Assembly (NCBI GenBank): GCA_021648145.1
Contig: JAKITI010000007.1
Coordinates: 1,018-65,017, forward strand
DNA from: Gammaproteobacteria bacterium
GTDB taxonomy: Bacteria > Pseudomonadota > Gammaproteobacteria > JAADGQ01
Direction of reading: 5' to 3'
DNA length: 64,000 nucleotides
Below are positions 36,695 to 50,222 of the stretch, piece by piece. A program made the position numbers and the translations under genes. The notes under the pieces were generated by a model. That model saw nothing but the letters and a program-made list of their open reading frames with translations, ran no database searches and was not told where the DNA came from. How positions within the stretch are numbered: the first letter of the stretch is position 1; every line of letters starts with the position of its first letter.

Positions 36695-39600
36695 ATGTAC
36701 TATTTTAACAAGAACAAGAATAAAAAAGCTGAATTTAAACCAATAAAATATATCAGCAAATTATCTCTTTCACTTGTCATAGCAACATCACCTGTCATAA
36801 GTCATGCCGTTTTTGAAGCGAATCCTGCTGGGGAAATTTCTCTGGCGGGCGCTAAAAATGGAGGGGTGGCCTGGAGTGATTATAATAATGACTCTTGCCT
36901 TGATATCTTGGTGAATGCTGGCAATGTTCAGCTTTTGCAGCAAGACAAGGCTGATGGAATCTGTATGGGTACTTTTAGTATTGCTCGTACTTTTGGCTCT
37001 CCAACAGACGATCTTCGCTCTGTCGTCTGGGGCGATTTTAATAATGATGGGTATACTGATTTTGCTGTTAATAAATTTAATCAGCTGGTGATCTATAAAA
37101 ATGTTGATGGTACGGCGGCATCGTTTATTGACGTATTAAATGAAGATCCCGGTAACTCTGAGGGGTTGGGCTGGCTTGATTATGATGCGGATGGTGATTT
37201 AGATCTTTTAGTGCAAAATCAAGAGATGGGTACGTACCTTTATAAGAATAATGGTAATGATGTTTTTGTTTATTCCAGTATTCACTCAGCGAATAAACTT
37301 GGTGATTATTTGGCCGTCACTGATTTTGATGTGGATGGTGATGTTGATGCCTATATTCGTCGAGATGGGCGAGCCAATAATGATGCACAAATAGATCTAT
37401 ATGTTAACGACGGTACCGGCACCTTCTCACTCAATAATACAGTCAATGAAAACTCACCTAATAATAATAAGGGTGGGGCAGTTTTTTGTGATTTTGATAA
37501 TGATGGTGACTTTGATCTGGCTCGAACAGAGGGTGGTCAGCAGGGAATTTTTGAGCAGATCAATGGTGAATTTTCTTTAAAAACAGAAACAAGTTTTTCT
37601 GGTCGTTATGAAAGTATTGCTTGTGAAGATGTCAATAACGATGGTCTTGTTGACCTTTTTTTAGGCGGCGAAGTGAGTACGTTGTATCTTAATAATGGTG
37701 ACTTTTCTTTTACAATAGATAACCTGAATATCGCTGAAAATGGGGGTGTTGGCAAAGGAAGCGCCTTTGCTGATTACGATCGTGATGGTGATATGGACCT
37801 GTTGATTAATAAAAACAATGCACCAACAGAGCTTTGGAAAAACCTGAAAAATGATAAAAATTACCTTCAGGTTCAATTAACAACAAATAATCGTGATGCA
37901 TTAGGAGCCACGGTTCGCTTGTATAATGCGGATACAAATGAAGCGGTCTCTGGTGTGCGAGAAATTAATGGCGGTATGGGGTGGGGAAGTCAGGCTGCAC
38001 CTTTTGCTCATTTTGGCGGTATTGATCCAGAAAGTACTTATATTGTACGCGTGAAATTTGTTGGTGGAGAGACCGCTGATCATCCGGTTTTGCCTAGCAA
38101 ACTATGTGATTATCAGTTGCTATCAATTGATAGTGATGGCAGTGATAATTTGCGTGAGTGTACTTCTGATACCGATGGTGATGGTATCAAGGATGACGTT
38201 GATCTGGATGATGATAACGATGGCATTACCGATGCAATAGAAGGTGATGGTGGAGTGGACACCGATAAAGATGGTGTGCCTGACAGTCGTGATTTAGACA
38301 GTGACAATGATGGTTTGTATGACCTGACTGAATCAGGAGCCGATCTGGCGCTGGTACTGGATAACGACAATGATGGCCGTATCAATGGAGATGTGGGCGC
38401 TAATGGTTTGCCAGATTCTGTAGAAACTGCACCAGAGTCTGGTGTGGCTAATTACAATAATGGTCAGCCGGTAGATACCGATGGTGATGAAATTCCTGAT
38501 TTTCGTGATCTGGACTCAGATAATGATGGCATTCCTGATGTAACTGAAGCTGGCGCACAAAATCCTGATAATAATGCATTTATTGGCGAGGGCGCGCCAC
38601 CTGTTGTAAATGCGAATGGTTTAGCTGAAGGTGCCGGCGTGACACCTTTGAATACTGATCGTGATAATGAAGTTAAAGAGCAAGCAGCCAATGTTCCCGA
38701 TTACCGTGATTTAGACAGTGACAATGATGGTTTGTATGACCTGACTGAATCAGGAGCCGATCTGGCACTGGTTATGGATGATGACAGTAATGGCCGTATT
38801 GATGGCGATGTAGGTATGAATGGTTTGCCAGACTCAGTAGAGACTGCGCCAGATTCTGGTATGGTGAATTACAATAATGGCCAGCCTGTTGATACCGATG
38901 GAGATAAACTGCCAGATTATCGTGATCTTGATTCTGAAAATGATGGCATTCCTGATGTGAGAGAAGGGGGTGCCAATGATCAGGATCTTGATGCTAATGA
39001 TGGCCGCATTTATGGCTTTATAGATGGGAATAGTGATGGGCTTGATGACAGCATTGGAAACTCTCCATTACCTGTCCCTGATACCGATGGTGATGGAGTT
39101 TCAGATTATCTGGATTATGATTCAGATAATGATGGCCTGAAGGATCTGGTTGAAGGTGGTGGAATTGATGTAGATAACAACGGTCTCGTTGATGAAATGG
39201 TAGATATCAACACGGATGGCTATGATGACCAGCTTGCAATTACTCCGCTAACAATTCCTGATACAAATGGCGATACAATCCCTGATTTTCGTGATGCTAA
39301 AGAACGGGTAGTAGATCCACCACCTGTCGTTGCAAATTATTCAGAGCTGGAAACAGGTTTGAAAGGTGTTGGCGGAGTGGGTGCAATGAGCCCTGTATTT
39401 CCATTGTTATTGATTGTTTCACTATTTTGTTTAGTGATGCGGAGCAAATCAAAACTCAGTGGTATGAAAGCTTTAAGTGGCTCGGTGTTCGCTGTGGTTC
39501 TAGGTTCAGGCACTCTGTGGGCAACACCCGCAAGTGCTGAAGCGGCAGAACTTGATATGCCTGATCACCAGAGTTCTAGTCAGCGTGTATTTGAATGGCA

Positions 39601-50200: not shown

Positions 50201-50222
50201 TAACAATAAACTAATGAGGTGA
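44280..50222 (+). CDS. giant FG-GAP beta-propeller/thrombospondin type-3 repeat protein with GlyGly-CTERM sorting signal
   Basis: 1980 aa with a signal peptide. Four tandem modules each carry about 7 FG-GAP-like blades (FGxSVxLxGxTALIGAxxxxxGAAYVF). TSP3 Ca-binding linkers separate them (DTDGDAQGDVCDPDDDNDKVLD...).

The C-terminus ADGGGAVSILFIFILLIAGRVRF is a Gly-Gly, transmembrane-helix, basic GlyGly-CTERM tail. Confidence 0.8.
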   Translation: MQSVIKRHTTKKITVQAIRFVWSIFFLVTLFFIGSASAGHAIIKLTASEGASGDRLGASVALSGDTALVGADGTDTGTVYVYTRATDELWQEQRKLTANDASTNDSFGYALAFSDDTALIGAIGGDDKGLESGSVYIFQKNATGIWSQRDKLLASDGLAGDYFGISIALNGNTALIGASGKKDGGAVYVYVRNSSGGWTEQAQLKGDDSRGSDNFGRAISLYGDTAIIGATGRDDQGSESGAVYIFTRNGLGEWAQQDKLLANDGQNGDAFGSSLSLNGNTALIGAAGADSTNGAAYLFIRNNQSQWIQQSKLFASDAASNSYFGHSVSLESGVALIGAYGQGASAAYLFTMTPTGNWVEQAKEESVRRSDAFGTSVVLDNGNALIGTVETGGKNQPAGNGSASLILGIAKDSDSDGVVNIEDTCPNISNPDQLDTDGDAQGDVCDPDDDNDKVLDSQDRFPLDAAEWADSDNDGIGNNSDPDLDNDGLPNTVESQYGLKVDDASDALGDIDRDGYNNIDEFRAGTSLTNASENPGSVLALHYKILASDGRADDYFGAQVALSGDTALVSASWNYEDIPGAGTVYVYVRNSSGKWLQQARLKPESLIEYEQFGSALSFDGNTALIGAVSDVSHRSGSVYIFVRNSSGEWSQQARLLAEEGSLDRYFGHSVSLDGDTALIGSLGSDAAYLFTRDSANRWALGEKFVADPPVAGSQFGISVALSNDTALVGAAAINSAYLFKRNQNSWRQQQKLTTQESDNDNFFGGSVALEGDVALIGAYRDDSSGVNAGAAYLFVRSVAEPWVQQEKLMAMDGMSNDQFGGHVALANGIAVVGAIGDGDSGSSYLFIRDASNQWSKQGKILAQDGIENDWYGYRVAVSSERVLIGAPKVNDQGENSGAVYIFDQVNRDSDADGLLDIADNCPDVQSQNQRDSDGDGQGDACDTDDDNDGVLDDKDPFPKDASESVDEDKDGVGDNADPDLDNDGLPDLVEDRYNLNENDRSDADDDLDKDGYSNLVEFRAGTKLDDKESRPSQLTALHYKLLAKDGAANDRFGFSVAFNGNTALIGAIGDNNNSGAAYVYVRNSEGEWVWQAKLEAENGEPESYFGTSVSLSGDIAMVSAHAETVGGRENVGAVYVFIRNESGQWTQEEKIITDDRVAGGYFGISVSQENNIAFIGAHGASAVYVFERNGAGRWLQKEKIFKKGASIEDFFGFSLSHSKETVLIGAKGEGRVYIYKKNIAGKWLQNAALQASDASDENFGYSLSLSENTVLIGAYKLNGNGSSYVFVRSVDDQWTQQARLISEKPSGSDGFGASVSLLGNVALIGAVSENAAYLFYRDTSGDWKKQTRLVAVDGGTGFFAQSLFIDEGTAVISRIGDDDNAIDAGAVYIFSGMTTDSDGDGLLDVADNCLDMVNVDQTNTDNDGLGNLCDEDDDNDGILDVDDYFPFDALESADYDGDKIGDNADPDADNDGLPDLLEEYYKELDPLDSSDANKDLDGDGYSNLEEYRAGTSLSDEDITPKMVSALHYKIVSDDGTKNSLFGRSVSLDGDTALIGASSDNNTTGAAYVYIKSGGRWILQAKLTASDKAERSFFGSRVSLSGNTALIGAYGSQVEGVRSGAAYVFIRDGNGNWKQQAKLKSSVEMENNRFGLSVALSGNTALVGEYNQNEKVTGAAYIFVRDKQSRWTEQAKLLASNGKTSDFFGSSIALSSAGDTAVIGAHQVNESSGIYDSGAVYIFQRNGTGKWEQQAQLVSVDKVKKGFFGYSVSIYGNLLLVGAYGEVLSRGAAYLFERDSNSTWKQIKRFSYEAQEARDYFGRSVSLSDGIALIGANGRGPGSSFLYMRDKKNRWNYAGQARPADGQSEDAFGVSVSLSGDAALVGSYKDNDNGEDSGSAYIFKSLLDDDDGDGILNIADNCPAIRNENQQDSNENGLGDVCDPDSKKAKASRFVTADGGGAVSILFIFILLIAGRVRFNNKLMR

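Follow-up and report, generated by a model that had tools for sequence, protein, structure and literature searches.

Protein-sorting tags such as LPXTG, PEP-CTERM, GlyGly-CTERM, MYXO-CTERM and JDVT-CTERM are defined, and searched for, at the ends of proteins. An internal tag has been described in MXAN_5598 of Myxococcus xanthus, a large adhesin with an internal MYXO-CTERM tag, an outer-membrane beta-barrel and an OmpA domain; its authors consider it a fusion equivalent to TraA plus TraB, and report that sorting tags are functional when internal (PMC11980579, 2025). TraB, which has an OmpA domain, shares an operon with TraA, a MYXO-CTERM protein (PMC3325183). Here we analyse a 64-kb stretch of contig JAKITI010000007.1 (hereafter the window), which belongs to a gammaproteobacterial metagenome-assembled genome (MAG), and focus on one of its open reading frames (ORFs), ORF1, in which an adhesin part and an OmpA part are fused in a single frame around a sorting-type tag.

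Two further systems come close to this locus. The JDVT-CTERM/MrtJ system is characterised by an invariant Cys and, nine residues on, a DP motif; each genome has one client, and an MrtJ gene adjoins it in 16 of 17 cases. Haft's description of the system mentions neither an OmpA partner nor fused forms, and contains 0 occurrences of 'OmpA' (10.1101/2023.06.07.544157). The founding paper of the GlyGly-CTERM/rhombosortase system (Haft and Varghese 2011, PMC3237569) mentions no OmpA and no fusions, and does not use the word 'internal'. The layout found in ORF1 is known in principle, and its frequency and its pairing with GlyGly- or JDVT-type tags are not described in the literature searched.

Architecture of ORF1

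ORF1 lies on the + strand and extends from 36686 (TTG start, 1350 amino acids (aa)) or 36695 (ATG start, 1347 aa) to 40738, with the frame open throughout. From N- to C-terminus it comprises:

36695-36808, + strand: putative N-terminal signal peptide, MYYFNKNKNKKAEFKPIKYISKLSLSLVIATSPVISHA, with a basic n-region, a hydrophobic core and S-H-A before VFE, as read from the translation
36818-38155, + strand: FG-GAP_3/ASPIC (CRTAC1-like) propeller domain; Pfam FG-GAP_3 6e-20, UnbV_ASPIC weak
38168-39325, + strand: Asp-rich, TSP3-like calcium-binding repeat stalk, with 8 of the 11 strict ORF1 motifs (aa 495-812)
39344-39454, + strand: internal sorting-type tag, ELETGLKGVGG-VGAMSPVFPLLLIVSLFCLVM-RSKSK, made of signature, transmembrane helix and basic cluster (aa 887-923 of 1350)
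39455-39538, + strand: predicted short cytoplasmic loop and internal signal peptide, LSGMKALSGSVFAVVLGSGTLWATPASA then EAAELD, with a basic loop, a hydrophobic segment and A-S-A, read directly
39608-40075, + strand: OmpA-type 8-stranded outer-membrane beta-barrel; Pfam OmpA_membrane (PF01389) 5e-8, 33.4 bits against a cutoff of 21
40124-40360, + strand: three TSP3 repeats as a linker between barrel and OmpA domain, with motifs at aa 1147, 1177 and 1207
40424-40708, + strand: OmpA C-terminal peptidoglycan-binding domain; Pfam OmpA (PF00691) 6.7e-19, 68.5 bits (aa 1247-1341)

The reading that we favour, with a probability of roughly two in three, is that ORF1 encodes a two-in-one precursor, in which an adhesin and an OmpA-type protein are joined by a membrane hairpin made of the tag and a second signal peptide. 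All the parts of the one-ORF layout, namely signal peptide, adhesin, internal tag, outer-membrane beta-barrel and OmpA domain, are present. A preliminary description of this DNA had placed the end of the gene at the tail, given as 39370-39450; no stop codon is found there, and the frame continues to 40738. Moreover, the GenBank accessions leave one number free between the upstream gene psd (MCF6235904) and the following ORF2 (MCF6235906), so that ORF1 is a single coding sequence in GenBank too.

The N-terminal 490 aa of ORF1 match cartilage acidic protein 1 (PDB 9etn_A, 4e-8), and this domain is 46-78% identical over 470 aa to ten homologs, with 46-55% for those from outside the clade. The motif DxDxD[GN]xxDxx[DE] occurs 11 times in ORF1, and PF18884 (TSP3_bac) is present in its homologs. 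In the linker that follows the barrel, the Pfam TSP_3 match (aa 1174-1195) scores 23.4 bits, slightly below the 25-bit cutoff.

The central part of the protein was modelled with AlphaFold2, the model covering positions 39323-40150 and having been made with a 15-sequence alignment. It places the tag helix at residues 25-45, a short helix of the second segment at 53-62, and eight long strands at 96-251; the predicted local distance difference test (pLDDT) is about 83-95 in most 10-residue blocks, with one block at 74. The top Foldseek matches are OmpA transmembrane domains (9fzc_A, 6.5e-10, with a target-normalised TM-score of 0.73; 1bxw, 1.2e-7). The C-terminal half of ORF1 fits the OmpA family: Pfam finds both the 8-stranded barrel and the peptidoglycan-binding domain, and the model and Foldseek agree with OmpA transmembrane domains.

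Compared with single-function relatives, the N-terminal domain of ORF1 resembles CRTAC1/ASPIC propellers and its C-terminal half the OmpA-family porins; unlike either, ORF1 holds both in one precursor through the tag and the internal signal peptide, and has TSP3 repeats between the barrel and the OmpA_C domain. With MXAN_5598 and the TraA/TraB pair (MYXO-CTERM, MrtX) it shares the order of adhesin, internal tag, barrel and OmpA domain in one ORF. Furthermore, its OmpA half scores 152-162 bits on the TraB model NF033763 over the TSP3 and OmpA parts (model positions 341-497 at 152), the cutoff being 700. However, MXAN_5598 carries PA14 and Cys-rich repeats where ORF1 has an FG-GAP/ASPIC propeller and TSP3 repeats, and it has a MYXO-CTERM tag and belongs to the Myxococcota, whereas the tag of ORF1 is Cys-less and not of MYXO type, and stands in a gammaproteobacterial MAG with no myxosortase-family gene nearby.

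Fused and split relatives

The junction between the two halves of ORF1 was compared in four related assemblies:

L001, GCA_054016435.1: fused, 1711 aa (protein P0001); GTA at the codon matching the internal ATG of the window
L087, GCA_964468225.1: fused, 1741 aa; ATA at the codon matching the internal ATG of the window
L002, GCA_015490755.1: split; stop codon, Shine-Dalgarno sequence and a GTG start 11 nucleotides (nt) on, in a different frame
L090, GCA_054016095.1: split; stop codon, Shine-Dalgarno sequence and a GTG start 14 nt on

Since GTA and ATA stand in the place of the ATG, the OmpA part of L001 and L087 lacks a start codon of its own there. The counterpart of this internal ORF1 segment in L002 and L090 opens a separate OmpA gene as its N-terminal signal peptide, and the stop codon, Shine-Dalgarno sequence and GTG start found there indicate that the two halves function as separate polypeptides. 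Both forms also occur among homologs of 36-45% identity, which are fused in P0003, P0004, P0005, P0006, P0019, P0020 and P0022, and split in P0008-P0018.

A profile made of the tag, the loop, the signal peptide and the barrel was searched against 1.84 billion cluster representatives, and the best 150 were examined. The whole profile is matched by 106 of these best 150, at more than 100 aa from their own N-terminus. In the 98 fused representatives that were parsed, the hairpin loop has a median length of 8 aa (interquartile range 5-11) and is net positive in all 98, with a mean charge of +3.6. An AxA motif follows the second helix in 62 of the 98, compared with 20% of random windows, a lipobox takes its place in 2, and the A-x-A site shares alignment columns in most fused homologs. 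This loop length, positive charge and AxA rate are as expected for a helical hairpin in which a cleavable signal peptide forms the second helix. A complementary scan of contigs with a profile of the N-domain alignment returned mostly distant ASPIC proteins from other phyla, the only family members being those of L007 and L008, both truncated. The fusion of the adhesin and OmpA parts in ORF1 is real and recurrent, and the fused layout is common yet hardly described.

In one fused homolog, P0025, the tag is of the JDVT-CTERM class (30.4 bits), and the segment after it ends in a lipobox, LSAC, instead of AxA. The OmpA-type half would here be a lipoprotein, which independently supports the view that the second helix is a true signal peptide.

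As the source assembly is a MAG, and as L002 and L090 have two genes 11-14 nt apart, the long ORF1 could be suspected to result from an assembly or sequencing artefact, or from a stop codon lost very recently, in an organism that really has two genes. This is contradicted by the data and hardly credible: three independent assemblies are fused in frame with differing junctions, two of them without an OmpA start codon, distant homologs of 36-44% identity are fused too, and so are 106 of the best 150 cluster representatives. An assembly artefact as the origin of the fusion is ruled out by the independent fused assemblies and by the profile survey.

A large passenger-like region preceding a beta-barrel in the same polypeptide also recalls autotransporters and intimins, and ORF1 could be an uncleaved, single-chain outer-membrane adhesin whose passenger is held by the C-terminal barrel. 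An 8-stranded OmpA-type barrel is too small for a passenger, given the size of autotransporter barrels. Moreover, the two parts are separated by two strongly hydrophobic helices with an always-positive loop, and each half has export signals of its own in the split forms. We therefore hold an uncleaved adhesin to be very improbable.

For the two-in-one precursor, a route can be proposed from the anatomy of ORF1, from the split forms and from the published models of MYXO-CTERM and GlyGly-CTERM sorting. The adhesin part would be exported by Sec until the tag helix halts transfer. The basic cluster would remain cytoplasmic and double as the n-region of the internal signal peptide, which would restart export. 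Signal peptidase I would then cleave after ASA, as suggested by the -3,-1 rule and by the split forms, and free the OmpA module, which would insert into the outer membrane and bind the cell wall. The hairpin would keep the adhesin in the inner membrane, and display at the surface would follow once an intramembrane sorting protease sets it free. The systems that have been studied use type II secretion for display, and in the canonical relatives the protease would be MrtJ, encoded adjacent.

Sorting-type tags of ORF1 and ORF3

The ORF1 tag gives no match to any C-terminal sorting model of NCBIfam at E<=10, TIGR03501 (GlyGly-CTERM) and NF033191 (JDVT-CTERM) included. There is likewise no match to the MYXO-CTERM models TIGR03901 and TIGR03382, and no CPBP gene was found nearby. 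ORF1 is 43-45% identical over about 65% of its length to P0003, P0007 and P0010. NCBI gives P0007 the name of a JDVT-CTERM domain protein; on NF033191, which has a cutoff of 27, the tag of P0010 reaches 42.7 bits and that of P0003 36.3. In the close relatives P0001 and P0002 only the transmembrane part matches this model, at 15.6 and 20.8 bits. With JDVT-CTERM proteins (NF033191, NF033192), ORF1 shares the adhesin homology, the ETGL/KTGL-x-G-x-GG lead-in and a Leu/Pro-rich transmembrane segment, and its tag aligns with theirs, but with a 5-residue gap at the Cys-containing stretch. The window's tag reads GVGGVGAMSPVFPLLL where that of P0003 reads GVGGCTVNPNAKFDPMLP; it has no Cys, and SP replaces the near-invariant DP. 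ORF1 further differs from the JDVT-CTERM proteins in its lack of an NF033191 match and of an MrtJ gene in the window or beside its close relatives.

Among the relatives from outside the clade, an Rce1-like gene lies directly 3' of the split form (P0010, locus L003) and of the fused P0003 and P0004 (loci L004 and L006). In L003, the gene that follows the OmpA gene reaches 100 bits on the MrtJ model NF033192 (cutoff 75).

These three loci, canonical for JDVT-CTERM, have the order client, OmpA-type protein (separate or fused) and MrtJ, at 8335-14304 in L003, 8001-13024 in L004 and 8001-12821 in L006.

In other fused homologs the internal tags pass TIGR03501, as in P0020 (18.0 bits), P0022, P0028 (23.3 bits), P0081 and P0117 (20.1 bits). 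At E<=0.05, 35 of the 98 internal tags match GlyGly-CTERM and 12 match JDVT-CTERM; some tags of the family being of the one class and some of the other, tag class varies within one protein family. By descent, ORF1 is of the JDVT-CTERM/MrtJ type rather than of the GlyGly-CTERM type, with a tag that fits neither model, and the window's tag is best seen as a Cys-less intermediate.

ORF3 is the second adhesin gene of the locus:

44280-50222, + strand: ORF3, 1980 aa
50139-50219, + strand: GlyGly-CTERM tail of ORF3, GGGAVSILFIFILLIAGRVRF NNKLMR; TIGR03501 18.2 bits against a cutoff of 15.5

Pfam finds 27 FG-GAP_2 stretches in ORF3 and TSP_3 at 85 bits. Four units in tandem make up the protein, each of about 490 aa and with 38-45% identity to the others; each is a propeller of some 7 blades, with 6-7 blade motifs, and then an Asp-rich TSP3 cassette. 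Eight Asp motifs of the DxDxDG type are strict and fifteen loose. Its final 27 residues, GGGAVSILFIFILLIAGRVRFNNKLMR, comprise a Gly-rich motif, a transmembrane helix and a basic cluster, at the extreme C-terminus and followed by the stop codon, and no other C-terminal tail in the window is tripartite. The orthologs P0121, P0122 and P0123 (63-75% identical) retain the run of Gly, the hydrophobic stretch and the basic residues, and their tails score 14.5, 20.1 and 12.2 bits on TIGR03501, one of the three being above 15.5. The match of the ORF3 tail is real but marginal. We read ORF3 as a separate four-propeller FG-GAP_2/TSP3 adhesin with what appears to be a true GlyGly-CTERM; it is presumably a client of rhombosortase and type II secretion.

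The preliminary description had assigned GlyGly-CTERM ends to two proteins of the block. This stands for ORF3, whose tail is tripartite, lies at the C-terminus and passes TIGR03501, and falls for ORF1, whose tail is internal and matches no sorting model. Its broader view of secreted, calcium-binding propeller proteins with sorting-type tails is supported for ORF1 and ORF3 alike.

Other homologs of ORF3, among them P0196, P0197, P0212 and P0236, end in a different tail, G-A-(L/F)-S-P-L-L-L-L-G-L-L-L-C-W-P-L-R-R. This gave no match to a sorting model in the one case scanned, and it resembles the SP-containing transmembrane segment of the ORF1 tag.

The search for a sorting protease combined a count of transmembrane segments in all ORFs of at least 110 aa, NCBIfam models on the candidates and a six-frame phmmer search with the MrtJ of L003. 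No rhombosortase, MrtJ, rhomboid-like or CPBP-like gene was found in the 64-kb window, which is part of a contig of 146,385 bp, in agreement with the earlier remark, now borne out by transmembrane counts and NCBIfam, that it holds no rhombosortase gene. The phmmer search gave no MrtJ homolog in the window, L001 or L002, and no Rce1-like gene is listed in L087 or L090. A rhomboid gene was found neither in L001, L002, L087, L089 and L090, L089 carrying a GlyGly-tailed ORF3 homolog, nor adjoining the fused GlyGly-type homologs at L005 and L008.

These results bear on a simpler view, in which ORF1 and ORF3 are both ordinary GlyGly-CTERM proteins, cut by a rhombosortase encoded elsewhere and displayed at the surface, the block having been acquired horizontally. 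The passing tail of ORF3 agrees with it, as do the GVGG, the transmembrane segment and the basic residues of the ORF1 tag. Furthermore, the internal tags of many fused relatives pass TIGR03501, with the 35 matches out of 98 noted above, and the loss of Cys and MrtJ in the clade would fit a switch to rhombosortase. However, the ORF1 tag is internal and has no TIGR03501 match at E<=10, the nearest relatives from outside the clade are of the JDVT-CTERM/MrtJ type, no rhomboid gene is present in the 64 kb or beside the relatives, and composition and synteny speak against a recent transfer of ORF1 and ORF3. Nor is the Gly-Gly motif kept in the orthologs of ORF1, P0001 having GVGAMG. Compared with the GlyGly-CTERM/rhombosortase system (TIGR03501), ORF3 shares the C-terminal GGG motif, the transmembrane segment, the basic residues and a passing score, whereas ORF1 has an internal tag that stays below the model, while the internal tags of many fused ORF1-like proteins pass. 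On balance this simpler view seems to us rather unlikely as a whole; for the ORF1 tag, rhombosortase is nevertheless the leading candidate protease.

The tag could also be a decayed signal, reduced to a mere stop-transfer helix, so that, after signal-peptidase cleavage, the adhesin would remain attached to the inner membrane on its periplasmic side, or be shed by unspecific proteases, with no dedicated sorting enzyme. It is true that the tag has neither the invariant Cys nor the DP motif and matches no sorting model, and that MrtJ is absent from the window and four related loci, yet lies directly 3' of the OmpA part in L003, L004 and L006. Against decay, the ETGLxGxG signature and the transmembrane segment are kept in the window and four close relatives (65-70% identical overall where measured), and residues T8, G12 and G14 of this signature show at least 90% conservation over 99 tags. 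Moreover, a calcium-binding propeller adhesin of 900 aa has no obvious periplasmic role. We consider a decayed tag unlikely.

Several points weigh against the two-in-one precursor with a sorting tag. The ORF1 tag matches neither TIGR03501 nor NF033191, and the Cys demanded by the MrtJ/myxosortase model is missing from it. The tag may be only a stop-transfer anchor, as neither the window nor the loci of the four close relatives contain an MrtJ or rhomboid gene. The tail of ORF3 is barely over its cutoff, and two of the three orthologs are under it. The cleavage of ORF1 into two mature proteins is inferred from A-S-A, the positive loop and the split orthologs. Finally, ORF1 has an in-frame ATG at 39464, from which the OmpA part may here be translated independently, although the nearest GGAG is about 20 nt upstream.

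Beyond the two-in-one precursor itself, we tentatively propose, as a possibility short of probable, that the hairpin of tag and internal signal peptide is a device of bacteria in general for making polyproteins, and one that has drawn little remark. It would be present in more than 100 protein clusters and fix a 1:1 ratio of adhesin to OmpA-type protein, and tag class would change within the family between JDVT-CTERM with Cys, GlyGly-CTERM and the Cys-less form of ORF1. The clade of the window, without the Cys and the adjacent MrtJ but with a GlyGly-CTERM gene as neighbour, would display a sorting signal in the midst of a switch of processing enzyme. Tags of this kind often lie in the middle of a precursor, before a signal peptide and an OmpA-type protein, where end-anchored searches and annotation rules miss or misname them. 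A dedicated OmpA partner of a sorted adhesin, as TraB is for TraA, offers a testable idea of how the adhesin could be kept on the cell surface or linked to the wall. Furthermore, the fused and split Cys-less forms in this clade, together with the Cys-containing forms of the nearest relatives from outside it, make a natural series for the study of protease recognition.

ORF2 and the history of the block

ORF1 and ORF3 belong to a block delimited as follows:

35479-36411, + strand: psd (phosphatidylserine decarboxylase), upstream neighbour; Pfam PS_Dcarbxylase 4e-58
40912-43911, + strand: ORF2, 999 aa
43924-44202, no strand: 279-bp segment with a 21-nt inverted repeat at 43924-43944 and 44182-44202; 3' edge of the insertion
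50226-50804, + strand: rubrerythrin, downstream neighbour; Pfam Rubrerythrin 5e-30

As the preliminary description had it, the block consists of three consecutive + strand ORFs, of 1350 (1347 from the ATG), 999 and 1980 aa, about 4,330 aa together, and Pfam matches on both sides confirm psd and rubrerythrin as its flanks. The accessions of ORF3 and rubrerythrin are MCF6235907 and MCF6235908. A putative signal peptide, a basic and then hydrophobic leader read from the translations, opens ORF1, ORF2 and ORF3 alike. The label of FG-GAP/TSP3 repeat proteins holds for ORF1 (FG-GAP_3) and ORF3 (FG-GAP_2, TSP_3), and fails for ORF2, which has neither repeat, nor Asp-rich motifs, nor a sorting tail; the strict motif counted 11 times in ORF1 occurs 8 times in ORF3 and 0 times in ORF2. 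A scan for promoters and terminators gave counts equal to the shuffled expectation.

According to Pfam, ORF2 consists of a Cohesin domain, CHB_HEX_C_1/Fn3_assoc, a central region and Laminin_G_3. The central region, of about 500 aa, has a sub-threshold DUF6298 match only, and the cohesin domain matches in the PDB at about 6e-5. ORF2 was not found in the four syntenic relatives L001, L002, L087 and L090; homology to their ORF1-ORF3 spacer ends after the ORF1 terminator region and restarts at about 44205. ORF2 is a private insertion, unrelated to ORF1 and ORF3.

The arms of the inverted repeat, AAAAAGGGGTCAGTACCCTTT and AAAGGGTACTGACCTCTTTTT, are 95% complementary, and its core is found only here, 3 matches turning up with 2 mismatches or fewer where 0.24 would be expected. 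A 65-aa ORF (44012-44209) lies in the 279-bp segment and is presumably what had been called a transposase relic. No homolog of the 65-aa peptide was detected by Pfam, by NCBIfam, by tblastn against plasmids or by a word-based protein search, so that a transposase relic in the block is unproven. The sequence GSERFKNEIEKLLG is similar to the C-termini of some Y1/REP-associated transposases, which is a lead and not a result.

By its appearance, the 279-bp segment could be a miniature element or one end of a mobile unit.

The block as a whole had been thought to be horizontally acquired, which its composition and gene order do not support. The GC content of ORF1-ORF3 is 0.425-0.442, compared with 0.427 +/- 0.034 in the flanks, and their codon distance of 0.055-0.076 is inside or under the range of long flank genes. 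The order psd, ORF1 homolog, ORF3 homolog and rubrerythrin is found in the four related assemblies, complete or up to the contig ends, psd being at the equivalent position in L001, L002 and L087, and rubrerythrin in L002, L087 and L090. We reject horizontal transfer of the whole block on its composition and synteny; only a stretch of about 3.4 kb, with ORF2 and the inverted-repeat segment, looks acquired, the rest being ancestral to the clade. The block is made of two ancestral surface-adhesin genes, ORF1 and ORF3, and of a recently inserted, unrelated secreted-protein gene, ORF2. The earlier account is partly upheld, confirmed in part as an observation and supported in part as an interpretation; for this organism, the gene model of ORF1 and the view of which parts were acquired are corrected.

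Downstream of rubrerythrin, on the - strand, 50836-52669 contains the gene for a 328-aa protein that begins with a leader and ends in a bacterial EndoU nuclease domain (Pfam 5e-21). This gene overlaps that for a 299-aa protein with four transmembrane segments and of no known family, which is conserved in L087, and the two could form a toxin-like pair. Further on, 54400-58540 holds a 762-aa ORF, then ExbB-like and TonB C-terminal-domain genes with a 161-aa ORF between them, a group unrelated to the findings on ORF1-ORF3.

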